64,000 bases of DNA from Balanoglossus misakiensis (GCA_040954595.2 CM082578.2:10795166-10859165), one strand, 5' to 3'. Positions 2,171 through 50,541 are shown, numbered from the stretch's first letter. Numbers and translations: made by a program. The notes: a model not told the origin generated them from the sequence alone.

Positions 2171-2645
2171 GTAAGACTGTTGTTTGTAAACTAGGGGCTC
2201 TTTGTCCGTCTACAGCTCTTTATAGGGAGAATCCAGGCGGGGCATGAGTCAAGAGACAGAGAATTCATGAAAGAATCGACATTCGTCAGTCAACGTAAAA
2301 TTGAACGCGGCTCAATACATGTGAAAGTTAGGAAATTTGTCCGGAAACCTATTTTAAGTAAAGTAAAGTGAAAATATTCAGAAGTGACGTTGATTTTACT
2401 GCCGTTCTTATTTCTTTCCGTTGTCTGTATTGGATCAACAAATTATATACTGCATGCATATTTTGTACATGTGAATGTGTACTGTTCATATATACATGGA
2501 AACGGCAAAGTGATATACAATCCACTTCAATACATGTACCTTGCTGTAGAAAGCAGGATTCGAAATGTTCCTTCGTCTTATAGTGTACAGTGTATGTTTC
2601 CACAGACAATAAACTCACTGACGATTTGCCTTCAAACCTAAAAGG

Positions 2646-4555
2646 ATGAAGATCGTGCTTGTATTTCCCCTCCTTTTGGTAGCGACGTTTCTTTATGATA
2701 CTCCGGGATCGTCTGGTGAGTTATAATATATATTTTCTTCTTTCATGGACTGGATGGCATAATCCAATCCCTCGCTATAATTATTATTATTGGTGTTGTT
2801 GTTGGTACTTGTACCACTGGTTATCTCCATGTATGTATTTCTATTTTTAAAGCATTGTCACTTTTCAACGAATCCATGACCTTTGATGATGCCCAGGCTA
2901 CGTGTGAGGGAGTTGGCCAGATTCTTGTGAAAGACACAAGTGCAGAAAAACATTCAGTAATACTAGAATTGCTCCAAGACAATGGACTGGGAGAAACTAA
3001 TATCTGGTTGAACGGCAGACAAGACTCAACTGATGCCTGGGTATTCACGGATGGGAAGCCAATCGGTAGTTACCAGCCTTGGAATACTGGTCAACCAGAT
3101 AGAAGTGGTCGTTGTTTACAACTGTGGTGAGTTAACAATTATTTATCCACATTAAATATATTCATACAATAAATAAGGTCCAGAAAACTGAGCTGTGTCC
3201 TTGGGATCAGGTCAAAATCTTAAATTTTACTAGATGCGGGAATTTATTTATTTATTTCAAGGCAAAGATAAACATATTATTTCAATGGTGACTTTTATTC
3301 TATATGCAGGGGGACGATGGGCCACACATGGGATGATCTTCCGTGTGACCATCTAAGACCGTTCATATGCCAAAAAGGTAATTCATTATCAAAGACTTAG
3401 AATACTATCAAATTCTAAAGTTTTCTCGAAGGAAATGCTTCAGTCAGTAAATAGGTTATATTTTATCTTATGATTTTAGTGAAACTCCGAAAATAGGCCG
3501 GCTGGTCATTGCCGATGTCTGTGCATGCCGATAGAAGAATCGCCTAATTTAACCATCGAATAAATGTGTATTCGGACATAAACTCCCAAATTATCCTTCA
3601 CGACCAAAAATACTGCTTGTGTGAAATTTCGTTGAAATCCACCTATTTCTATTCGGATTATTATTTTTACATAATTCTTTAATATTTAATTATAATTTTA
3701 TTATCGAATTTTGGTTTCAACAGAGTATTTCCTGAAATGTGTGAACAAGGCCAGTGATAGCCCCTCTGCCACGAACTATGCGACATGCCCTGCAGGTGAA
3801 TAACAAATATTTATGTCTTTGTGCCATGGACAAGCAATAATTCCTGGGGAAAAATGGTAAAAATGGCATTAACAGTAATAGCCATGGTACTTTTACTCAC
3901 CAAACCAGTGTATGCTATTATCATTCATTTGCAAAGTATGTAGGGGAGTATGGATTTCCTATGCAAACATGCGACATTATCGGCAGACGAAGTGTTAATT
4001 GTATTTCAGCTTGTTTCTTAGAAGCTTATATGTACCTTCAACTTCAATCTGTTGTCCACTGTGTGCGTAAAGTACGCGCCGGGGGGATTTTAAAAAGAAA
4101 AAATACAGTCGTCCAAATCATTCAATTGTTCACTTTAACATAGTGTGTGAGGGTGTTTTTCTAAACAACAAGAAAACATGATGTTCATATTCTTGTTTTC
4201 ATAAAAATATAACGTAGAGATTGGCGGCCATTTTGAATTCAAAATCGAGATAATTTCGCTCTCACAAATTTTGCACGGCGACCCACAATTTTTGTTCATA
4301 ATTTTAAGAGATGATAGTCTTAAGCTGCACTTTGAGCAAAATATGAAAACTATTACACTCAATGCTTCACGACGTCACTATACTTGCATTGTAGGATTCG
4401 AGGTAAGCGGGTGCAGTTGTGGCCACGGATGTGGTTCCTACAGTATCGAGATGGCCAGCGGTCGCTCACGTTGTTACTGTCATCTTGGCTGCATGCCAGA
4501 CAACCAACCCATCGACTGGACCTTGGCGCGTTGCTGTAAAGTTGCCCACGAGTAA
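2646..4555 (+). CDS. Secreted C-type lectin fused to a resistin/RELM-like domain (~214 aa, 5 coding exons)
   Basis: Exons 2646-2715 (signal peptide MKIVLVFPLLLVATFLYDTPGSS), 2853-3126, 3310-3377 (CTLD: TFDDAQATC…IWLNG…W…WNTGQPD…CLQLW…WDDLPC…PFIC), 3724-3795 and 4395-4555 (LKC…ATCPAGFEVSGCSCGHGCGSY…CYC…C…DWTLARCC). All junctions are GT-AG, phases match, total 645 nt. Confidence 0.88.
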
Positions 4556-4960
4556 CCAGAGCAATCCCACACTTGGGACAGTGTCATAACCATGAATGAC
4601 TGACATTGTACAGACTATTTAGTTAACGCGAACATGATTTGCCCGGTACATTTTCACCACATGATTGCATGAATTCCCCAATTGTTTTAATCAATTAGCT
4701 GTGTTAATTCCTGTTGATCACTGTAACTTTTGGAAGCACGGTATTAAGCCAAGAATGTGTTTGTATTTTATCTGAACGCTAGTGGTGTTATTGTATTATA
4801 ACATCATACCCAGGCATGCCATAATGATTGCTAACTTCCTGGTTTCTCCAACCATTGAAATAAAACGTAGGATTCAACTTCTAGTGATTGAAGCGTTATC
4901 AATAAAATATACCCTATCATCTGCACATTTTGTCTTGTCAGTTTTTATCTTTCCAAACAA

Positions 4961-5092
4961 TATATAGCTACCTTGACCTGGTTTTTTTCTTTTACGGCTA
5001 TCCTGGGTTCAGTGACGATGATTGCCGATGAAAAACAAAGTGTATCTATCTCGTCATGATGATATATTATTATTATCGTAGAGGGCGACGTT
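4961..5092 (+). repeat. Dispersed direct repeat, copy 2 (similar to 484-615)
   Basis: Aligns by eye with 484-615. Confidence 0.75.
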
Positions 5093-5874
5093 AGGACTAA
5101 CGGGTAGAAGTGCATGAAAGATGTCAGAGGGCGCCACGACATAGTACAGCTGCACATGCCAGCCGTGTTTGCTGAACACATGCATTCGCTTGAAACATTT
5201 AAATTAGGCTATAATTTAAATGTTTCAAACGAACGCATAGGCAACCAATCACAGCCCCGGTACTTTCCAGAACAGCTGAAGGTAGCTCGAAACTGGAGCG
5301 TGTAGAACACGTAGTCCCTCTCAGAAATCGCCTCAAAACACACGGAAGATCTTTATAAATGGGCAAGTAGGATAGCAGGTATGAATTTTGACATGGAATG
5401 GGTGGTATCGATGCCGATTTATTGATTAAATTTCGCCTTTGTGTGAGTGAAAACATCTACGGAACTTGGCAATGCATCTGTCAAATTTGGATTTGGTTTC
5501 ATGACTTGTCTTCGTAAATAAATTCTTGGCATTTCATGTAGTAGGATAATGTACATGTGTACATATTGACCACACATGCGTAGGCAATCATTTTTCTGCT
5601 GAAATTAGGCATTTTTCCAAAACTCCATTAGTATTAGTTAGATCACTCTGAACATTTCACTAATCATGTACCTAAGGTCAAAACTAAATAAATATGATTT
5701 CCGTTTTGATGACGCATGTTTCTATGGCACCCATTTGGGGCCCATTTATACATTTCCCTTAAATCTATCAGAAATTGTAGCCCATGGGTACATCATACAA
5801 GAAATAACATGTATGAACATTTCGCATGGAGCGGGTATCACAAGTCAATTTTAATAATAACAATATGCACATAA

Positions 5875-6027
5875 AATCCCATGATATCTTTTGTTTTGTT
5901 TGACGTCATCGTATTCTCGTGGTTTTCGCGGAGTTGTACAACTTCTCACCTACGGCTCGAAGTTGCACGGCTCCGCGAAAACCACTCGTATACGATGACG
6001 TCAAACAAAGAAAAATATCATGGGATT
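5875..6027. mobile_element. Palindromic (hairpin) element, MITE-like
   Basis: Arms of ~70 bp (AATCCCATGATAT…TTTGTTTGACGTCATCGTA…GTGGTTTTCGCGGAG…CAACTTC and its near reverse complement) flank the loop TCACCTACGGCTC. No coding capacity. Confidence 0.65.
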
Positions 6028-6204
6028 ATATATAAGTATCTTGCGGGATGTTTTACAGTATGCAAGAATAATAATAATCCACTGCAATGGGCCTCTGGAT
6101 AAACATGCTAAAGTATAAAACAGGTCTCGACATTTACGTTCGCCACCAGAAGTGTTACCACCGTAAAAAATAAACTAACCAACGAATTTGTTTTCATATC
6201 GAAG

Positions 6205-8669
6205 ATGATGAAGATCGTGCTGGTATTTCCACTCCTTTTGGTAGCGGCGATTCTGTTTGGAATTCCGGGTTCGTCCGAGTCAGGTGAGTTACAGATTGTT
6301 TCATGGAGTGGATTGATACAACAGATCATCACATTTTTTTCGGAAAAAGAGCTTCATTCATGGTATTATTTCAATGCTCCCAAGTCTCGAAACCCGGCCA
6401 TTGCTTCTACTATACAGCTAGATGTATCATTACATTACATTACATTACATTACATTACATTACATTACATTACATTACATTACATTACAGCTATCCTTGG
6501 CGTGGGGTCTGACTCGAACGTGTACAAAAGAGCGGATATTGAAGGCACATGGATAGGTCCTTTGAAAGAGAGCTGTTGTGTATCGTCCGTAACCACCTTG
6601 ACCGATGGGACAGTTGTTGGCGTTGGTATGGACAGCAACCTGTACACTAAATCCCTGACCGGACTCGATGGGCCATGGCAAGGACCTGTCGCCAACAGTT
6701 GCTGCGTCAAAGAAGTCACCGTTATGCCAGATGGCACGCTGGTTGGTATTGGTACGGATAATCAGCTGTGGACTCGGCCTGGTGTCGAGGGAACCTGGAG
6801 CGGTCCTGTGGCTAGCAGCTGCTGTGTTCAGTCCGTATCACCAATGCCGTCTGGTGGCCTGCTCGGTGTGGGTATGAAGCGAGGTAAACTGTTGGTCCGG
6901 TCGGGAGTACAAGGGACGTGGACCAAAGTGGACGGCAACGGCAAAGTCAGTGGCATATCCGTGGATGCAGCCGGTAGAGTCATTGGTATTGGTCGATCAT
7001 GTGGATTGTGGCAGCGAAACGTGTTTAGCACGCATGGCTGGTTAGGCGAAATTGCTGACAGTCGATGCGTTAAGTCAGTGTCATTTATGCGAAATGGTAA
7101 GTTATTCCTATTACTTTGTTTGATTTATTTATTTGATCTCCACGGGGTAGATAGTTTGACCTACCGTAAGTTTTGAGGGAGGGGTAGCCATCCCGGAAAA
7201 CATAGCTTGATTAGCAAAATGCAATACCTGTAGGCATTAATTAATACAAAGAAAATAATAACTAATTAAAGACTTAATACATTCAAGTGAAGATGTCATA
7301 AATAGACGGAATACAGAAAAGGGTATCTTGTCGTGTTGGAGAGATGTGGTGGAATTACCGGTACATGTAAAACTAATTTCGTCGTTTCTATAGCAACAAC
7401 AGCTCATTCAGTGAAACAAAGAAGATCATTGTCGTTGGACATCGTTGGGAAAGTATGAAGACGACGGATTTGTATCATTTACTTGGCTCATGGAAGGTTT
7501 CCATCCACCACAATTGTGAATATTGCAATAATTTCACATCATACTAATATTTACATATACTGACTTCACAGCCCAGGTGTCGACATGGCAGACAGCATGC
7601 TCATGCAATGGAGGTAAAAGTTTTAATATTTGGCGAGTTTTTTCACTCTCGTATCTACAAGCGGGATGGAAGGTGTGTGTGGTTGAACGTTGATTTACTA
7701 TATATCCACATTACTGAGACTGTTTTGCAGAATGAACCGTAGCTATAATCGCATTGTAAAAATCGTGACCATCCCATTAATTTGGTATTTAATAATGTAA
7801 AATCTGTTTTTATATTAAGGGGTGGATATCAATGTTTAAACCATTCCTCATATTACAACAAATGCTGTCAACGTTTCATGTTCTACTGAATGGTTTTGAA
7901 ATGAGTCAGTAATCGAATTTTGTATGTGTACACTAGCATGGGGGACACCATGTGCAGCTAGTATAGGTGAAGTTTCATGTAATATGTTTCTTGGCATCAG
8001 TGGACGGAACTGCGATGAAATCATGGTACACATCATAACAATCTTTTTTTCAATATTGTTCTAGGCCCTACAGCCCCAGTGTATGGTATTGGAACAAACA
8101 ACCAGTTATACAAACGTAACGACATTGAAGGCGCGTGGACAGGACCAATTCCAAACAGTTGCTGTGTTACAGCGCTGACAACCCTGGCAGATAAGACAAC
8201 CGTTGGTGTTGGTACTGACAATCAACTGTGGACAAAGTCTAGCGAAGATGCTCAGTGGGTAGGGCCTGTAGCCAACAGTTGCTGCGTCAAAGAAATCACC
8301 GTTATGCCAGATGGCACGTTGGTTGGCATTGGTATGAATAATCAGATGTGGACTCGGCCTGGTGTCGGGGGAACCTGGAGTGGTCCTGTGGCTAGCAGCT
8401 GCTGTGTTCAGTCCGTATCACCATTGCCGTCTGGTGGGCTGCTCGGCGTGGGTATGAGCGGCACATTATGGTTCCGGCCCGGAGTACAAGGGACATGGAC
8501 CAAAGTTGACGACAACGGCGTAGTCAGTGATATATCGATCAACGAAAATGGCGTGGTCATTGGTATTGCGGCATCATGTGGTTTATATCAGAGGTCGTAC
8601 TATGATTCCAACTGGGCAGGCGAGATTGCAAACAGTCGATGTGTGAAATCGGTTGCATTCATAAAATAG
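6205..8669 (+). CDS. Secreted protein with two tandem 5-repeat beta-propeller (tectonin/tachylectin-like lectin) domains (~443 aa)
   Basis: Exons 6205-6283 (signal peptide MMKIVLVFPLLLVAAILFGIPGSSES), 6491-7096 (5 x ~40-aa repeats, hhG[VI]GxDxxL[YW]xR…W.GP…SCCV..V…DG), 7572-7613 (linker) and 8065-8669 (5 more repeats). Phase-1 junctions; AATAAA at ~8708. An extra exon at 7394-7452/7458 is possible. The lectin assignment is inferred from repeat pattern. Confidence 0.8.
6428..6489. repeat. (TTACA)n pentanucleotide microsatellite
   Basis: About 12 copies in the intron, running directly into the acceptor TTACAG at 6490. Confidence 0.95.
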
Positions 8670-36560: not shown

Positions 36561-39170
36561 TCACAGCAAAAACGTTGCGATTGACAGAATACTGATGACG
36601 ATGCAGCTGGGCGTGATGACGTCAGAGCCACCTGCCATCAGCTCTCTCTCGTAGCCGACGCAGTTGTCGTAATCGCAGCAGGATACACAGCTCTCACTGT
36701 TGTCAGCTGAAAGATAAAAAAAATAAAAATTGTGGCCCACAGTAAGAATTATTGACCTCTGAGACCCTGGAGATTTTTTTGTATTTCAAGATAATTTATT
36801 GTGCGGATAGATTTGCAAGCATTGGTGAAATACGAACTCTTGAAATGTGGTATCACCCGAAACAAACAGAAAAAACTCCGCGTATATTGAAGTGCAAGGG
36901 AGCTAGCTGGACAAAAAATAGGCAGGTACATTTGGACTTCACTCAAGCATACAAACACACACGAAACAACTTTGTAGGTGATGTAATTACTTACGACTGC
37001 ATCCATGCCTGTTCCAGCATTGACTCGCACAGCCGTGGCGTTTCATCCACATGACACCATCCTCGTGCCAAAACTCACTCTGCATTTGAGTTAAAAAGAA
37101 AAGAAATTCACAATATTGTCGTCAGAAGTGACAAAACACACAGGCATGCAGGCAGGCAGGCACACAGACAGACAGACAGACAGACAGATGGACGGACGGA
37201 CGGACGGACGGACAGACAGACAGACAGACAGTTTACTTACCATGCAATAAGTCTGTTCTGGCGTGCACACTTGGACGTCATCTGGAGTCAATCCCATACC
37301 GGTGGCACACGGGGAGTGCTCGCTGACAAACCCGTCACACGTGTAGCACTTCAGTGGCTTATCTGAGATCAAAATTACAAAAAAAACCATGAGATAGTAA
37401 CACAAAATGTCAGTTCATTGGGGCGTGAAACCATGGGTTAACGATATCCAGTCATCGAGGCACATACCTGTGCATTACAATCATATTTCCGTCCATTTCA
37501 TGTGATGGCTGAATAAAGAGATAATTTGCAGTTTATTGTCAATCAAATGCTAGTAATTTACAATTTAGCGATTAATTTACAAATTTACGGTTCTTAGCAA
37601 AAATAATTTTTTTCCAAATTTAAACAGAAATGTCACACGCCAATATCTTTTCTCGAAGAATCTGCGCTGAAATCGCAACTTCGAGAAAATTGCATCTTGA
37701 AAGTTCCTCCATGGGCAAACAGGCGCATTCACAAAACTGGCGCTGTCACCGGCCTGTACGGCGATAGGCTTATATAATCAGGCTTTGGCGTGGTATTTAC
37801 CCCTACTTTCGCCCAGCCTGCAGAGTACACAAATATTCTATGCAAGGAATCCACTTTAATAACGAGTGAGAAGTAGTGGCGCGGTTGCCGTGGCGACACA
37901 CCTACTTGCCTATTTGCCGATCTTTTGTCAGACAAACGAAACTGTGCACTAGAACGTGTTTACATGGACAACAATTAGAAAACAAACTTCAGTACACAAA
38001 GAATCCGAGCAAATTGTCTGTTTCACGGTATACCCGCCAAATAAATTGTCTCGCAAACAGTGGCGTGATCAAACACGTGTCTTTGAAGTAGTCGGTGTGG
38101 TTCTAAATATTCCATTGTCATCCGATCTCCAACTCATCACAAAACCCACAAACCACGTGAAACTCCACTCGAGATTACGCAAAGTGAAATTGCCATTGAA
38201 ATACGCGTACTTATTATACACCTACTCCTGTAACCTATGTTGCTAAATTATTTAATGGATACAGAAATTAATGCCGTGGTATTCGCCGAAATGACAACGT
38301 CCCTTGAAGTCTCTAGTGCAACTTATGGTGATGGATTTCACGAAATTGCAAATTGGTCTCCTTGTACTATATTATAAGTAGCCAATTACTTGTTTTTTCC
38401 CTACCGTTATCCTAAATCATAAATAAAGCATTAACGTTTAATCGAAATTGGGACTGAGACCACCCGTTCTTACTGGAGTCGCGTGGTTACGATACTTACG
38501 GGTTTCACAGCGCATCCCGTAGTAGTTTGACGGGCAGCGGCAGGCTCCGCGGTGGCATTCACCAGGCCCGCAGTCAGAATCCTCCATACACCCCATCATC
38601 TCACCATCGGGTTCGTGTTCGGGATCTCCCATCGGGTCATCTCTCTCCTCCGAGTCCGAGTCGGGCTCGTGCTCTTCTTCCGGCATTGGCTCTGTCATCC
38701 CCTCCGGTTCTGGCTTATGCTCCGGTTCTGTCTCGGTCTCTGGTTCGGCCATTTTCGTAGCCTGTGGGTCTGCCATGGTCTGCGCTGTGTGGAGAGAAAT
38801 GCACGCGATATAGCAAAAAAACTGTTGCAACCACCGCAAATAGATCTGGCATAATTTATTATTGCGCCGGCACATCATTTCACGAATGTCATTACTCACT
38901 GAAGTAGACCATAGACAGCAGAAAGGACGGATATTTTTAGCCTCGGGTATTAAAGGCGCACCAGCTTTATCAAAAATGAACCGGATTAACTTCATAAAGA
39001 TTGCAATGGCCACAATTGCGTGAACCAGCTGAGGTTGAAATTATTCCCTTTGCGTATTAAAAGTCCAGACTTGAAATTCGCGAAAGGGGTGGAATTTTTC
39101 CTCGCGGAGAAATTAACTCACCATGCACGACAGCAAACGCTGCCACGAGCAATACCAAGTACTTCAGCAT
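36561..39170 (-). CDS. GPI-anchored protein: signal peptide, acidic E/P/D-rich linker, EGF, Ly6/uPAR (three-finger) domain (~228 aa)
   Basis: Minus-strand exons 39170-39122 (MLKYLVLLVAAFAVVH), 38784-38500 (EPE-rich linker + EGF C…CRCPSNYYGMRCE), 37362-37241 (LKCYTC…C…C…YCM), 37079-36995 (…HGCASQCWNRHGC) and 36706-36561 (CVSCCDYDNC… hydrophobic tail IVISILSIATFLL*). GT-AG, frame-consistent, 687 nt. Confidence 0.85.
37140..37230. repeat. Compound tetranucleotide microsatellite (GCAG)n(ACAG)n(ACGG)n
   Basis: Seen directly in an intron of the minus-strand gene. Confidence 0.95.
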
Positions 39171-41041: not shown

Positions 41042-44000
41042 ATGACGGAACGTGAATACCGTATACAGACGATTGCTTGGAAGGGCAGTCTTGCGAAACT
41101 CCCAGGGAATAGAAAGGTAGGTATTGCGACGTGTTTTGGTCAAGCAAACACTGTCGTTTGGCGTTCGAATCTCTGTTTTGAATGAATGGTCGTGGTTTCT
41201 GCAGAAGGCGGGATGGTGATCCGCGGAGTGAAAGGGCCGGTGCGTGTCTCGTTTGGAGACACAGTGTATTTCGTTTCCTGTTATGGATGGGTTGTACCGG
41301 ATGAATTTGGGGACGGACGGACGTATGTACAGTGAACCAGTCCTTCCTTCGCAGACAAAATTAGAGTCGGTCAAACACTTTACTCCAATGACAGCAGTCG
41401 ATTTTTGTTACACATTTAAAATACTGAAAGAAATGCAGCTGTCGAAGATATTTTGCCGCGATCTTTGCAGAAGGTTCCCTACGTTTAATGTTGGCGATTT
41501 CTTCGTTTCATTCAAATCAGGTGGTACTCACTCTTGGCTTCCTGACGTCACTTGTCTACGTTGCTATCTACATCCTCGGGTCGTCAAATTCACAAACTCA
41601 ACACGTTGGTCACGGCGCGGATGCGAACAGCGAGTAAGTATACATCTCCTCTCCTCCCCACCCATGCCTGTCTGGCAAAACGAGAGAAAGTTCAAACATA
41701 ATCGCCCACAATAAACATTTGTTCTAAAATGGAGGTTTATGTTTGCGGAATCAATGATCTAAAATAATAGGGTCCGGGTTTTCGGTACTGTCGGCCACTC
41801 GCACGCTGTTTTGCTACTCTCGTGGCGGCCACTTGGTATGTGTATTTGAATCAGACACACACTGCAGGCAGACAAGTTCACGATATCGGCTAATATAGGG
41901 CCTATGGAGATTCGTGGTGTAAGACTTGCCAACTTTTTTTTTCATTCTGACAGGAAGAAAAGAACCCTGCCGGATGGATCAACGCGACTGTTGTTGCCTG
42001 GTGACACTTCGTGCGCGCGTCAAAACGACATCGCTTACGTGTTCAATCGGAAGACGGGAAGCACTACACTTGTCAGTCTGCTGTACCGATATGCTACGAA
42101 ATACAACTTTCCCTTTCTTCGTGACGTCATCGTCCACAAATCGGAGAGACACGGTGGTTACATGAGACTTTACCATGTCCGGGGACTGTCTGAACAAATG
42201 GCCACTGCGCACAAGATTTCGAGGCATCAATATCTACTGCCCTCTAACATGACCATGTTGAAATTCACAGCGGACGGCGTAAGAACTCAGAGCAAATCCA
42301 TCAACACTGTCTTTCTTTCCATTGTGCGCGATCCCGCCAAAAATTTCGAGTCTGCTTTTGAATTTTTCCATATAGGGTCGTACGTGAGAACCGTGCAAGG
42401 GAGGCGACTGGTCCCTCGGGGAGCGCCGAGCCCGATCGTGGAATTCCTGAAAACGCCTGAATTTTACCGAAGGTTCATGAAACTGGGGGGTCTGCACTGG
42501 AGTGTGTCCAGAAACAGCCAATTGTGGCAGTTCGGCCTCGCGCACAGTTACCATGACGACGAAGAGGTCGTCGAGGAGTACCTGGAGCAGCTGGAGAAGG
42601 AGATCGATCTGGTCTTCGTCACGGAATACTACGACGAATCTCTGATTCTACTGAAAAGGCTGATGTGCTGGGACATGGAAGATATCCTGTACATGTCGAG
42701 GAGGGTGAGAGTGAGGGACACACGGTCAGAAATGACGCCAGAAACACGTGACAGAATCTACCAATGGAATCACGCTGACGTCAAGTTGTACGACAGGTTC
42801 AACAAGACGCTGTGGAGGAAGATCAGCGAATACGGGGACGGCTTTGACGCGGAACTGCGGTCATTCAGACAAGTCAGGGATGCGGTGGCAACCGACTGCG
42901 AACATTACCAATATCTCACGGAAGACTCTCTGCTGGTGATGAGAAAAGCGCACATTTTCGTCAAAGATTCCGCCGGATACTGCAGGCTTCTGAACTCGTG
43001 GTTTGATTTTGAAGTGACCACTGCAGTTGAGACCAACGGTCCTGTGGACTACAAGATTATCCCAACCCGCGAGCGTAAGTTTGAATAGTACCACTAAAGG
43101 CCCGTGTGCTGTGCAACTGTTTACTCTGTTTTGGTGATTTTACTTTTCAACTGAAGTAAGTTCTTGCATGTAGATGTGTGTTTATACCGAGGTGCGTGTG
43201 TAGAAGTTCTTCAGATTGCTTCATTAGGATTGGCCAATGCGTGGATATGTTTTAAAGACTTACTGATTTTAAAAGTATGTTTATTCATCTAGTCTCTTCT
43301 GGTAGCCCTTCAAATTATCTGATGTGGGTGAAATGCGAACAGCAAGAGGCACCATACCACTGTTTCATCCATTGCCGAAATTTTTGATGTATTAAAAAAC
43401 ATGGGCACAAAGGTTCTGAGGTCCCAATTCTTCTGGCGACTAGAGAGGGCGCCCTCGAGCGACGCAATTGCCAGACGGAGAGGACACACTGGAGTAGCCC
43501 AAACCCCTCGCGACACAGTCAAAGGTGTAGGGATATAGGAAGCGTGTATAGGATACAATATAGGCATGTTACGGGTCCGGGTTGAGCGCCCCCACTCGCC
43601 ATAACCGTACCCCTGGACAGGGTTCAGATGAGGACCTCCAATGCAATACCCACATCTTTCTGTTGTGCGTTCTTCCAACAGGGTTTGTTGGCTCCATATC
43701 GAGACAAACCTCGCTCGAAACATACGCAGGTCCAACGTGTGTAGAAGTTGACTATCACCGAGAGGGTATTTCGTCGCGCCTCTTCAGAAACTGGCGGAGA
43801 CCGAGTCTTGACGTGTACGTCAAAACGGACAATGAGACCATCGTCCCCAGACACATAAAGAGCTTGAAGCCAGGGCACTTCCACGCCGCCTTCCAAGTTG
43901 AGGCTGGTCATCATTTACAGGTGAGAGAAGGAGGCATATTTTTCGGACCGAACAAAAAGTTAGTGTGCGGTATAGCCGTCCTCGTTCGGCTGTTCCCGCC

Positions 44001-47031: not shown

Positions 47032-50000
47032 ATGCTGTCGGCTGTTCGAAAGCGACTCCCCACCAACCGACAGGTAAGCGAGAGCCCCCTGGGCACCAGT
47101 ATGGGAACTAAAAACTGTGATGAGCGGAACTTCATACATGTACATGTAGGCCTATTTATCACTCTGACTTCGAGTCATCCCGCTGCCCATTCGTCACCAA
47201 TCGCTCGTATTCCTGATTATGCCGTTGGTAGTGTACCGAAGTTAAAAAGATATTGATTTTAAAAACGGGTTCACGAAGGCAATTATACTGCGGACACACT
47301 TTATTGTCTTCAACGCAGTTGGATCGAATTCAGATCCTGTTAGAATCCGACACAAACATTTCCACACGCTGCCAACAACACATTAACATAACAAGAAAAA
47401 GTCATAAGGTTAAAGCCATGGGTTTATAGGCACGACAGACGTTTACATACATATACATACATACATACATACATACAGACGTAATAAATACATGCGGCAT
47501 GTTGTTTCATTGCGCCCCCCCCCCCCATTATCACGTTGCAGTTCCAGTCCAGGGTCTACACAAATCGCGCTGTTGGACAACATTTCTCACGTGTTTATCA
47601 AAGAACGAATATTCTATCTCGTTTTGTGGGACATGGTCAAGTTTTAGACCGTCCGTAGTATCCTCTGTCGGAATAGTTTTGAGACTCAACCCACCAGCTA
47701 TCTCACATGCTGCTCCTTATTTCTTGCAGGTGTTCCTCGGCGTCACCGGTTGCCTAGCAATATTTTACATCACCTACTGTGTACACGGTTCACTCGGCGG
47801 ATATCCCGCTATGTCGTCGGTCTTCCAAGACAGCGAATTCAGGTGGAAAAATAGTCGACGTTGGTGGCGCAATGTATTTTCTCTCCTCACGCGAAATGCA
47901 CATGGGATTTTAATTGACCCTTCCTTATGCATGTACGATGTACACGTATTTGATGGTATCTTATATAACACGGAAAGGCTAGGGTTCAATACGGGTCATC
48001 CTAATTTTAAGCTCCCTCCACAATTCTTTACTATCAATCACGTGATATGGCCATGTGACCCCCGGCGTTGTCATTACCAGATGACGGGCAAGCAATATTT
48101 CGGCATACTTTTAAAGTTTTTCCGAGTATGTTTTTACTTTAAAACAGCCAGACACGTAACATATGTATCAGTTATGGTGCCTCATCAGCCTCGTGGCATT
48201 TCGTCTGCACAGCCTTTGTCTGCACCACGTTGCTGAAGTTGCCCGTCATCTGGAAATTTGAATGCCAACGGAACAGCGTCTGACGTCACTTGATATCAAA
48301 GAAAAGGTCATCCTCAAACATTTCAGTATTGTTTCGATCACATCCAAAGAATTGTTATTTACGTTTAACCGGGTTCCTTGTCGTGGTTTTCTATCACGCA
48401 GTATTTATCAGAATATATCTCTATTCTCTCCACGATATCTAACAATATTCTCACCCCTCCCTCCACTTTCCCAACGTCTCTGTCTTTCATCTTCTCGCCA
48501 GATACTTTCCAGGCCAGAAGCAAGTCGCCTGGGAGACTTCGTCCAACTCGACATGCAGTGGGAGATACGACGTAGCCTACGTGTTCAATCGCAAGACTGG
48601 CAGTACGACGCTGGTGACGTTGCTCAACAGGGTCGGTCGGAAGTATGGCTTCCCCATGAAGAGAGAGATCAGCTTGCACAACTCCAACGACTTTGGCGGT
48701 CTCCTGAACATGTACCACTTGGGCGGGGTGGACTACAACAGCCACCTGGAGACTGGCGCTCGCGCGGGCGCCCAAAAGCGTCGCAACGTTTTGCTTCCAA
48801 GCCACGACCGGAAGTTGAGAATTGTTCAGGGTTTCGTTGGAAGTCACCAAGTAACCATCGATACGATATTTGTGTCGATAGCTCGAGATCCAGCGGCAAA
48901 TTTCCGATCAGCCTTCGATTTTTTCGATATCTCACAAAAGTACTTCAACGGACAACAGAGCGACTTCGAAATGTTTCTGTCAAATCCCCAGTACTATCGG
49001 GAGAAAATGCCAAACGGTTCCCTGGCATGGGCCGTCACCAGGAACAGTCAACTGTGGCATTTCGGTCTCGACCACAGTTACCATGACAACACGGAGGTCG
49101 TTGATCAATACATCGACCGAATCAGCGAAGAAATTGACTTGGTGCTATTGAACGAGTACTACGACGAGTCGCTAGTTCTGCTGAAGAAATTGCTGTGCTG
49201 GAACATGGAGGACATACTGTACATCGCCAGGAGAGTCAGCCACTCGCCGCGGTCTAATCTGTCGGCAGAAACGCGCCACAAAATCTACCGCTGGAACAGC
49301 GCCGATGTGAGATTGTACGACAAGTTCAAGCAACTGCTGTGGGAGAAAATAGAGGAGTACGGAGAGAGTTTCCAGAGAGACCTCCAATTGTTCAAAACGC
49401 TGAAGAATTTGGTGACGGACGACTGCGACGGATTGCACGCTCTCAGCCTAGACACCATGGAGTACCTGTCACGGCACGGCACGTACATCAAAGACGGACG
49501 ACAGTACTGCAAGCACGTCGAGGCGTGGTTTTCATTCGATGTCGATGTGCAGTACGAAATCATGGGTCCTAGAGAATACAAAGTCTCGCCAACTTCAAGC
49601 AAGGCCTGTGAGTCAACTAAGCATTTGCTGTTGTTGCTTGGTGTTGTTTTCGTTTGTATTGCAAGCCATGCGTTAGGGCGGGTTAATAACTAGTGTTGAA
49701 TGTCGTGCTATTTTGAACTCGATGTGATTGAAATGCCTGACCCTATCTAGCCATTGAGGGCGTTGATAAAATAACGCGAAGCATTCGCAGGGAAAGTATA
49801 CACTACCATATCAGTGAGCGGAGCCGGACCCGTACACGACTAAATCATTCAGTTGCCATGAAATACTTAGATAGATTTCCCAAAAATGAGTAGCCTCCTT
49901 TTTCGTCTTCATTTTTGAAAACCCCCACCTCCAGCTTTCCATTTTATGAGAGACCCCTTTGGGTGCTCTGGCCCCACCCCCGGTCCGTATATAATGACGG

Positions 50001-50541
50001 CTCCCCAAAGCAGACTACCTGCACAATGTTGGCCGATGAACTAACGTGTACTTGCCTTTTCGCAGATCTGAAAACTCAACACAGCCAGAAGCCAAAAATG
50101 GAGTACCAAGGTGTCTCTTGTCTTAAGATAAACTATCACAAGTATTCGGGGTGGTTCGGTTGGCCAGAGAGAAGTTTGGATGTGTATCTCAGAATCGGTG
50201 GCGATGACGACTGGCAGTATCGAAGCAGCGATTCTCAAAGGGGAGAATACACGGCCATGACTGAAGTTAATACTTCCCGCAATAGTCTGCAGGTTAGTCA
50301 CGATTAATTAAAAATTAGAGCTGGAATGTTAACTTCCAAGACTTTTATGCTATACGCATACATAAACATAATGTTCGGAGTTGACGGGGAGATGTGCAGA
50401 TGTTCAGTCACAGTTTAGTGGAGGGTTTAATGTTGACTCCTTTTCTTTCGCTCCAAACAGGTCATGAGTGAAGGTGGGTATTCGGGAGAAGAATACATCA
50501 TTTCGGCGGTCAGTGTATCACCGGGATCGTGTGACCTTTGA
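47032..50541 (+). CDS. Galactose-3-O-sulfotransferase family protein with C-terminal MAM-like domain, paralog B (~522 aa)
   Basis: Exons 47032-47073, 47730-47842 (TM anchor; 113 nt as in paralog A), 48502-49607 (KTGSTT; SIARDP…FRSAFDFF; EYYDESLVLLKKLLCW; WNSADVRLY), 50066-50292 and 50461-50541. Same intron phases as paralog A; 1569 nt. Confidence 0.88.
47445..47477. repeat. (TACA)n microsatellite
   Basis: Seen directly; intronic. Confidence 0.9.

Follow-up and report, generated by a model that had tools for sequence, protein, structure and literature searches.

The window, by which we mean the whole analysed stretch of 64,000 nt of Balanoglossus misakiensis DNA (GCA_040954595.2 CM082578.2:10795166-10859165), contains a five-exon gene at 2646-4555 on the plus strand. 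The five exons join into 645 nt encoding 214 amino acids and a stop codon, with no internal stop and no frameshift in any exon, and all four introns (4/4) are bounded by GT..AG, in phases 1, 2, 1, and 1. The predicted 214-aa protein is composed, in this order, of a signal peptide, a C-type lectin domain and a ten-cysteine resistin head. This intact frame confirms the proposal of a first-pass annotation of the same DNA, which had described a spliced open reading frame with a signal peptide, a lectin domain and a resistin domain; the junctions it placed at 3377 to 3724 and 3795 to 4395 coincide exactly with those of the predicted gene model.

Exon 1 (2646..2715, plus strand, as are all features of this gene) encodes the predicted signal peptide in 23 codons plus one base and ends in phase 1. 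It has a paralogue in the next gene, whose first exon matches it at 58 of 69 nt (6208-6276). The N-terminus is the sole strongly hydrophobic stretch of the 214-aa protein, with a windowed mean hydrophobicity of 2.1-3.2 over starts 1-7. Exon 2 (2853..3126) carries the bulk of a short-form C-type lectin domain, including the QPD motif at residue 104, and one N-glycosylation sequon at residue 29, and exon 3 (3310..3377) provides the end of the domain with WDD (residue 122) and its last two cysteines. Because exon 3 ends in phase 1, exons 2 and 3 together form a phase 1-1 cassette. The fusion intron, intron 3 (3378..3723; 346 nt, phase 1), separates this cassette from exon 4 (3724..3795), a phase 1-1 exon that encodes the first part of the resistin head and is the counterpart of coding exon 2 of vertebrate Retn; it was assigned by alignment with hemichordate heads and by a rise in profile score from 58.5 to 76.0 bits. 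Intron 4 (3796..4394; 599 nt, phase 1) lies within the Gly codon of CPxG, and exon 5 (4395..4555) encodes the remainder of the head, with 8 of its 10 cysteines, and the stop codon. Two candidate polyadenylation signals (AATAAA) follow at 4859 and 4901 (4859..4906, plus strand).

Only three of the 114 GT sites within the gene agree with the donor consensus at 8 of 9 bases, namely the donors of introns 1, 3, and 4; the donor of intron 2 agrees at 7 of 9. We infer from the genomic sequence that 3377 is joined to 3724, which would link the lectin to the resistin exons. Read-through from exon 3 leads to a stop seven codons on, at 3398-3400, and intron 3 contains one AATAAA, at 3559, which is a weak indication since about 0.4 are expected per 346 nt at the local frequency of 1.2 per kb. 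The possibility that an independent resistin gene begins in intron 3 was rejected, as there is no signal-peptide exon in this intron: its five ATG-started frames are of 5-12 aa, none is a signal peptide and none runs into exon 4. Since these 346 nt hold no signal exon, the resistin exons would be secretable only via exon 1. Skipping of exons 2 and 3 would keep the frame and yield a plain resistin-like peptide of 100 aa (a Ptychodera resistin-like protein has 102 aa).

In the Pfam search, exon 2 alone matched Lectin_C (PF00059) with 29.5 bits (cut-off 22.6), and exon 3 alone covered profile positions 90-107 with 16.2 bits, below the cut-off. The domain has the four conserved cysteines of C-type lectin-like domains (Cys 41, 111, 127, and 135), and the galactose-type combination of QPD and a WND-type WDD, claimed at first reading, is found at residues 104 and 122. 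Searches of the PDB returned matches including codakine and collectin-11, and the best sequence matches were the multi-domain IgY receptor and PLA2 receptor, which are protein-binding lectin-like receptors and whose E-values come from many weak repeats. In calcium-binding C-type lectins, a Glu ligand is located two residues before the third cysteine; here that position appears to be Gly, and the loop from QPD to the next cysteine is of four residues. Because the site looks incomplete, with a short loop and without the Glu, sugar binding may be weak or absent. The galactose specificity previously read from QPD is therefore unsupported: one calcium ligand seems to be missing and, in the available part of PMC12842671, QPD is not decisive for galactose binding in invertebrate lectins, the motif-based prediction in bivalves being called simplified. 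The same part reports WDD in a calcium-dependent bivalve lectin (PMC12842671).

Exon 5 alone matched Pfam Resistin (PF06954) with 40.0 bits (E = 6e-10; cut-off 25), so that both expected families, Resistin and Lectin_C, were recovered above their cut-offs; exon 1 alone and exon 4 alone had no family match in this search. Ten of ten conserved cysteines of the resistin head were aligned, with the spacing 15-8-1-3-13-1-3-13-0, which is exactly the pattern from C-x15 to the final CC given by the first-pass annotation. With a profile built from 19 other heads the spliced protein scored 76.0 bits (58.5 bits without exon 4), and with one built from 10 vertebrate heads only it scored 51.7 bits; 1000 shuffles of the head with fixed cysteines reached at most 17.5 and 13.0 bits, respectively, 735 and 708 of the 1000 being reported at all. 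Convergence through shared cysteines was rejected on the basis of these shuffles and of the intron match described below. When exon 5 was compared with the PDB, the only three matches at E<=10 were 1rfx, 1rgx, and 1rh7, and a profile of six invertebrate sequences matched resistin (E = 2.5e-13) and RELM-beta (1.6e-12), the next match having an E-value of 0.25.

Exon 5 alone, which is part of the head, was modelled with low confidence (pLDDT 61, pTM 0.31), and the Ptychodera protein P0027, whose head is 71% identical, was modelled as a stand-in with a pLDDT of 79.5. This model has the six-stranded, disulfide-rich beta-sandwich fold. Resistin and RELM-beta were matched first both by Foldseek (E = 9e-5) and by VIA (Z 9.3, rmsd 4.6, 75 residues aligned; Z 9.1, rmsd 4.0, 72 aligned), followed in VIA by PCSK9 modules (Z 6.6, rmsd 5.7, 78 aligned; Z 6.2, rmsd 2.9, 63 aligned). 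The head of the window protein is a true resistin homologue, and the resistin identity claimed for it stands on the Pfam score, the PDB profile match and the fold of the stand-in. Its identity is 62-71% to the named hemichordate heads, 57% to the head of the unnamed protein P0020, 55-58% to anemone heads, and 44-49% to 10 vertebrate heads. The spacing 11-8-1-3-10-1-1-9-0, present in 9 of the 10 vertebrate heads (the tenth has 12 in first place), differs from that of the window head at 4 of 9 places (15, 13, 3, and 13 against 11, 10, 1, and 9), and on account of this difference the invertebrate heads are regarded as a distinct subfamily. The first spacing of 15 residues is common to the window head, Ptychodera, Saccoglossus and P0020.

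The position of the introns was compared with that in vertebrates. According to the available parts of Hu et al. (2015; PMC4467842), both coding introns of vertebrate Retn are phase I, and in the Chinese alligator the duplicated exon 2 ends after the first base of the Gly codon in CPxG, a boundary that was read by eye and whose one-base ambiguity was settled by the stated phase I. Intron 4, in phase 1 at the Gly of CPxG, coincides to the base with the boundary between exons 2 and 3 of vertebrate Retn, and the window gene and the vertebrate resistin genes alike have a further phase-1 intron immediately ahead of the head. The match with RETN at this Gly had been put forward in the first-pass annotation and is borne out by the supplements of PMC4467842. 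Because this intron position is common to both, the head is likely older than vertebrates. The accessible parts of the same survey, the one evolutionary study of the whole family that was found and one confined to vertebrates, report Retn from coelacanth and tetrapods alone among 116 genomes, with none in 17 ray-finned fish, one shark and one jawless fish, for which sensitivity is a possible cause (Hu et al., 2015; PMC4467842). Resistin is treated as a mammalian family in the portion available of a 2026 review, and Pfam Resistin appears in a 2018 table listing domains that anemones have and corals lack, uncommented in the accessible text (PMC6214176). The domain itself had thus already been labelled outside vertebrates, there and in RefSeq, where hemichordate proteins of Ptychodera and Glandiceps are named 'resistin-like'. 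No paper on an invertebrate resistin or a lectin-resistin fusion was present among the matches listed from a largely open-access literature.

The distribution of the head was investigated by comparing exon 5 (a 52-aa query) with 1.84 billion cluster representatives in a word-free search, which gave eight matches, five of them true resistin heads; the other three (P0024-P0026) are unrelated repeat proteins and were dropped. As a single query against longer proteins exon 5 gave no candidate and a profile was needed, and Atlas searches with exon 5 and with P0020 gave only scores < 0.9. The profile search, covering proteins of 126-2000 aa with candidates chosen by shared words and length (n = 4400), returned 20 matches, comprising the three fusions again, stand-alone proteins of Saccoglossus and Nematostella, 10 vertebrate proteins, three-copy tandem forms from a ciliate (two) and a dinoflagellate (one), and two reduced-cysteine proteins. 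Stand-alone heads, consisting of a signal peptide and the head, occur in Ptychodera flava (XP_070537341-3), Glandiceps talaboti (XP_077985835) and Saccoglossus kowalevskii (XP_006825807). P0020, on a 1053-nt contig, combines the head with WSC, a sugar-binding domain, and is thus a second fusion to a glycan domain, and P0021 and P0023 (Actinia tenebrosa XP_031570485 and Nematostella vectensis EDO37952) combine it with collagen. The latter two have the C1q/ficolin-like layout of signal peptide, collagen and head, and are annotated merely as collagen or uncharacterised. The ciliate and dinoflagellate transcriptome proteins (P0030, P0031, and P0043) have three tandem heads per chain, echoing the three-module tail of PCSK9, and P0042 and P0044 have a reduced-cysteine head that scores above the Pfam cut-off (52.2 and 50.1 bits). 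In a pattern scan of metagenomes (42 of 64 parts), 2 of 599 pattern matches were confirmed. L001 (3-92), on a short AT-rich metagenome contig, is the incomplete end of a hemichordate-like head (74% over 27 residues), and L002 was rejected as the opposite strand of a long helicase-like ORF.

Lectin_C was found in none of the eight and none of the 20 matches, and a six-frame profile search within the window (2794 stretches) recovered only exons 5 and 4 at E<0.01. The lectin-resistin architecture was not found in the searches run and is known from one genome. Because these 8 + 20 matches include no lectin fusion, the fusion looks young and the head old; and because the searches, though limited, did find close hemichordate heads, a lectin fusion is probably lacking in the three annotated hemichordate proteomes that they covered. 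The description of the head as an ancient, shuffled module is upheld by its occurrence alone, with WSC, with collagen and in tandem among hemichordates, anemones and protists. Taken together, the shared intron and the anemone relatives point to an origin of the head no later than the deuterostomes and likely before the cnidarian-bilaterian split. An unrooted tree of 20 heads, which left out P0030, P0031, P0042-P0044 and further cluster members, recovered vertebrate (support 95) and anemone (96) clades, placed the window head with a support of just 37-50, and joined anemones with vertebrates (75), contrary to the species tree. As the position of the window head is unsupported and the anemone-vertebrate join runs against the species tree, the tree was not used for history.

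The next gene (6208-8669, plus strand) has three exons, with both introns in phase 1, and encodes a predicted secreted protein of 428 aa. Its first exon, the paralogue of exon 1, is followed by two tectonin-type repeat blocks rich in paired cysteines. The duplication extends over the upstream region, exon 1 and the start of intron 1, 2505..2761 (plus strand) corresponding to 6062-6318 ahead of the tectonin-repeat gene. Block 1 scored 21.5 bits with Pfam Tectonin, below the cut-off of 30, and block 2 matched no family; relatives of the gene carry Tectonin, and the best matches are Saccoglossus proteins (52% and 49%). In Saccoglossus, the tectonin-type block is fused to PF01400 (in a protein named metalloendopeptidase) or to PF00354, which we take to be astacin and pentraxin, respectively. 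Weaker relatives derive from metagenomes, a myxobacterium and a fungus. The same promoter and signal exon are thus used for different phase-1 cargoes, and the locus itself provides direct evidence that exons were shuffled between secreted proteins.

Other features of the window were recorded. A direct repeat of roughly 135-160 nt (79% over 136 nt) lies upstream of each paralogous signal exon, at 468-624 and 4944-5109, and is perhaps the trace of a tandem duplication or of a small mobile element. Imperfect palindromes at 5180-5238 (85%) and 5871-6031 (81%), between the two genes, resemble small non-autonomous transposons. A satellite of 25.9 kb occupies 9881-35744, with about 297 copies of an 87-bp unit that are 95-98% alike and a few 70-bp variants. 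Two long single-exon frames at 41850-43088 and 48443-49693 (plus strand) matched galactose-3-O-sulfotransferase with 152.5 and 134.2 bits (cut-off 27). The stretch at 49894-50307 (plus strand) matched Papo_T_antigen with 20.2 bits, below the cut-off of 23 (E = 7e-4), which may be chance, and at 38438-39040 (minus strand) an acidic Glu/Pro-rich stretch is followed by an EGF-like cysteine pattern, all matches being below cut-off.

The capacity of the head to form trimers was evaluated by modelling three copies of the stalk-less head of P0027 (residues 25-97). The trimer score was 0.88, compared with 0.00 for the best of three controls, with at least 94% of contacts agreeing between runs and a pLDDT of at least 87. 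In the calibration, which was done with two copies and not three, 21 of 30 solved pairs and 0 of 23 single chains attained the mark; for eukaryotes the figures were 17 of 29 pairs (animals 7/16) and 0 of 30 single chains. Of the seven eukaryotic cases lacking an older solved relative only one passed, so that the result for P0027 may be a memory of solved resistin. The window head is identical at 19 of 24 interface positions (one of the 25 lies outside the alignment), which is not significantly above the rest of the head (31/47; p = 0.29). The model predicts that the stalk-less acorn-worm head would trimerise by itself, and the collagen stalks of the two anemone proteins and the tandem triplets of other relatives are likewise in keeping with a threefold unit. 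Against this, the available parts of PMC13647132 and PMC8253364 ascribe the mammalian trimer to the coiled-coil tail, and the accessible part of PMC8576046 describes full-length human resistin trimerising an N-terminal fusion partner, the engineered fusion having retained the tail (residues 23-108). A trimer-forming role of the head would fit all the fusions described above. This role and the in-frame skip isoform had been overlooked in the first-pass annotation, whose observations hold and whose interpretation holds in part.

The interpretation that we prefer, with a probability of about 45%, is that the gene encodes a trimeric, secreted, collectin-like lectin in which the resistin head replaces the collectin neck, and which likely binds glycans of microbes or particles. 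Carried on a trimerising head that would do the job of the neck, the lectin domains may form a three-armed lectin with a likely high avidity for glycans. The link from the last cysteine of the lectin domain to the first of the head is just seven residues long, and in a C-type lectin domain the two termini are side by side, opposite the sugar site. From the short link and the adjoining domain ends it would follow that the three sugar sites face one way and the head the other, the lectins being clustered at the pole where resistin bears its coiled coil. With this geometry, agglutination or an opsonin-like bridging of microbes to host receptors would fit better than entry of the head into the bound membrane. 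Regarding its history, the phase 1-1 cassette of lectin exons may have been joined to the pair of resistin exons behind a locally duplicated promoter and signal exon, probably recently and in this lineage. An immune role is suggested by domain analogy and by one neighbour gene.

The three other explanations differ from this interpretation in what the head does, in whether the fusion is used, and in what the lectin binds. The model first proposed was a lectin-guided killer, in which the lectin docks on a bacterium and the head oligomerises and permeabilises the membrane in the manner of mouse RELM-beta. According to the available parts of PMC13647132 and PMC8253364, membrane permeabilisation is a property of several RELMs and of human resistin, and the C-terminal head of mouse RELM-beta, taken by itself, can bind anionic lipids and permeabilise liposomes. 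The window head keeps all ten cysteines, its net charge of +1 is within the range of -1 to +4 of 10 vertebrate heads (RELM-beta not being among them), and the lectin could supply targeting where salt screens charge. However, the available part of PMC13647132 reports the strongest RELM-beta activity at 25 mM NaCl, pH 5.5, and with anionic lipids, and cautions that the C-terminal activity should not be generalised to all family members; the acorn worm is likely marine. The mature lectin-resistin protein is acidic (net charge -9, the lectin domain -8), whereas the charge of the head, about neutral, speaks clearly neither for nor against killing, and the head would point away from the bound surface. 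Membrane killing, as carried over from mouse RELM-beta with its low-salt optimum, is thus unsupported here, and we consider this model doubtful.

It is unlikely that the fusion is not a working product, the locus mainly giving a lectin-only protein and/or the plain resistin-like peptide and the five-exon form being a minor product or a recent chimera with no function. An open frame exists for each of the shorter forms, through the stop at 3398-3400 and the AATAAA at 3559 or through the 100-aa isoform joining exons 1, 4, and 5; moreover, the annotated hemichordate relatives are stand-alone heads, and the fusion is seen in one genome only, with Lectin_C in 0/8 and 0/20 matches. Against this, the intron 3 donor is among the three best of 114 GT sites and the phases match, the resistin exons depend on exon 1 with the lectin exons standing in the path, and the exons are free of stops and frameshifts. 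Still less likely is a non-immune trimeric ligand or mucus component, for example of feeding or burrow mucus, with a lectin-like domain that binds self glycans, matrix or a protein and a head that acts as a cytokine-like signal or a cross-linker. This explanation would be consistent with a calcium site that looks incomplete, with the IgY and PLA2 receptors as best PDB matches of the lectin domain, with a head fold that the stand-in model shares with PCSK9 modules, and with the proposal, in the accessible part of PMC8253364, that mammalian resistin heads are protein-interaction domains. However, those PDB matches rest on many weak repeats, the neighbouring gene that shares the signal exon encodes a tectonin-type protein, and QPD and WDD are both kept, WDD being present in a calcium-dependent bivalve lectin (PMC12842671, in the part available).

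The partners of the head, namely C-type lectin, WSC, collagen and tandem triplets, suggest that its old job was to make trimers and to present them in secreted proteins of recognition. This brings within reach of testing the long-standing question of whether the ancestral role of resistin was antimicrobial, structural or hormonal. In the lectin fusion, nature has in effect run an experiment in which the head is separated from the coiled coil. More speculatively, and improbably in our judgement, the head may have been an innate-defence module of early animals that is seen being armed at this locus: by skipping of the phase 1-1 cassette one gene would make both the plain RELM-like peptide and the lectin-tipped form, and these would co-assemble through the head into trimers with one to three sugar-binding arms, so as to steer a membrane-damaging head to microbes in seawater. 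If true, the lectin would steer killing where the charge-guided killing by RELMs would fail.

Compared with known systems, the window protein has the same ten-cysteine C-terminal head as resistin/RELM (FIZZ; PF06954; 1rfx, 1rgx, 1rh7) and is likewise secreted by prediction. It differs from the vertebrate proteins in having neither the helical coiled-coil tail nor its inter-trimer cysteine, the lectin domain being present instead, and in its size of 214 aa against about 110. The named hemichordate resistin-like proteins have a signal peptide and the head only, to which the window protein adds the lectin, and their signal peptides are unlike its own (local scores of 15-29, compared with 85 for the neighbouring gene). 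In P0020 the head is preceded by WSC and not by a C-type lectin. The anemone proteins share the invertebrate type of C-terminal head, with C-x-C-x3-C as second triplet, and secretion, and have a collagen stalk where the window protein has the lectin. The fold match to the C-terminal Cys/His-rich domain of PCSK9, which holds three modules in one chain behind a protease, is to single modules, was obtained with the stand-in model and corresponds to an identity of only 23-25%. In collectins, ficolins and tetranectin-type lectins, recognition domains are clustered by a trimerising element, and in the preferred model the likeness would consist in three recognition domains clustered in this way. Unlike collectins, the window protein has its lectin domain directly after the signal peptide, without a collagen region or coiled-coil neck; its order is the opposite one, with the lectin first and the putative trimerising unit last, and it is not a member of that family.
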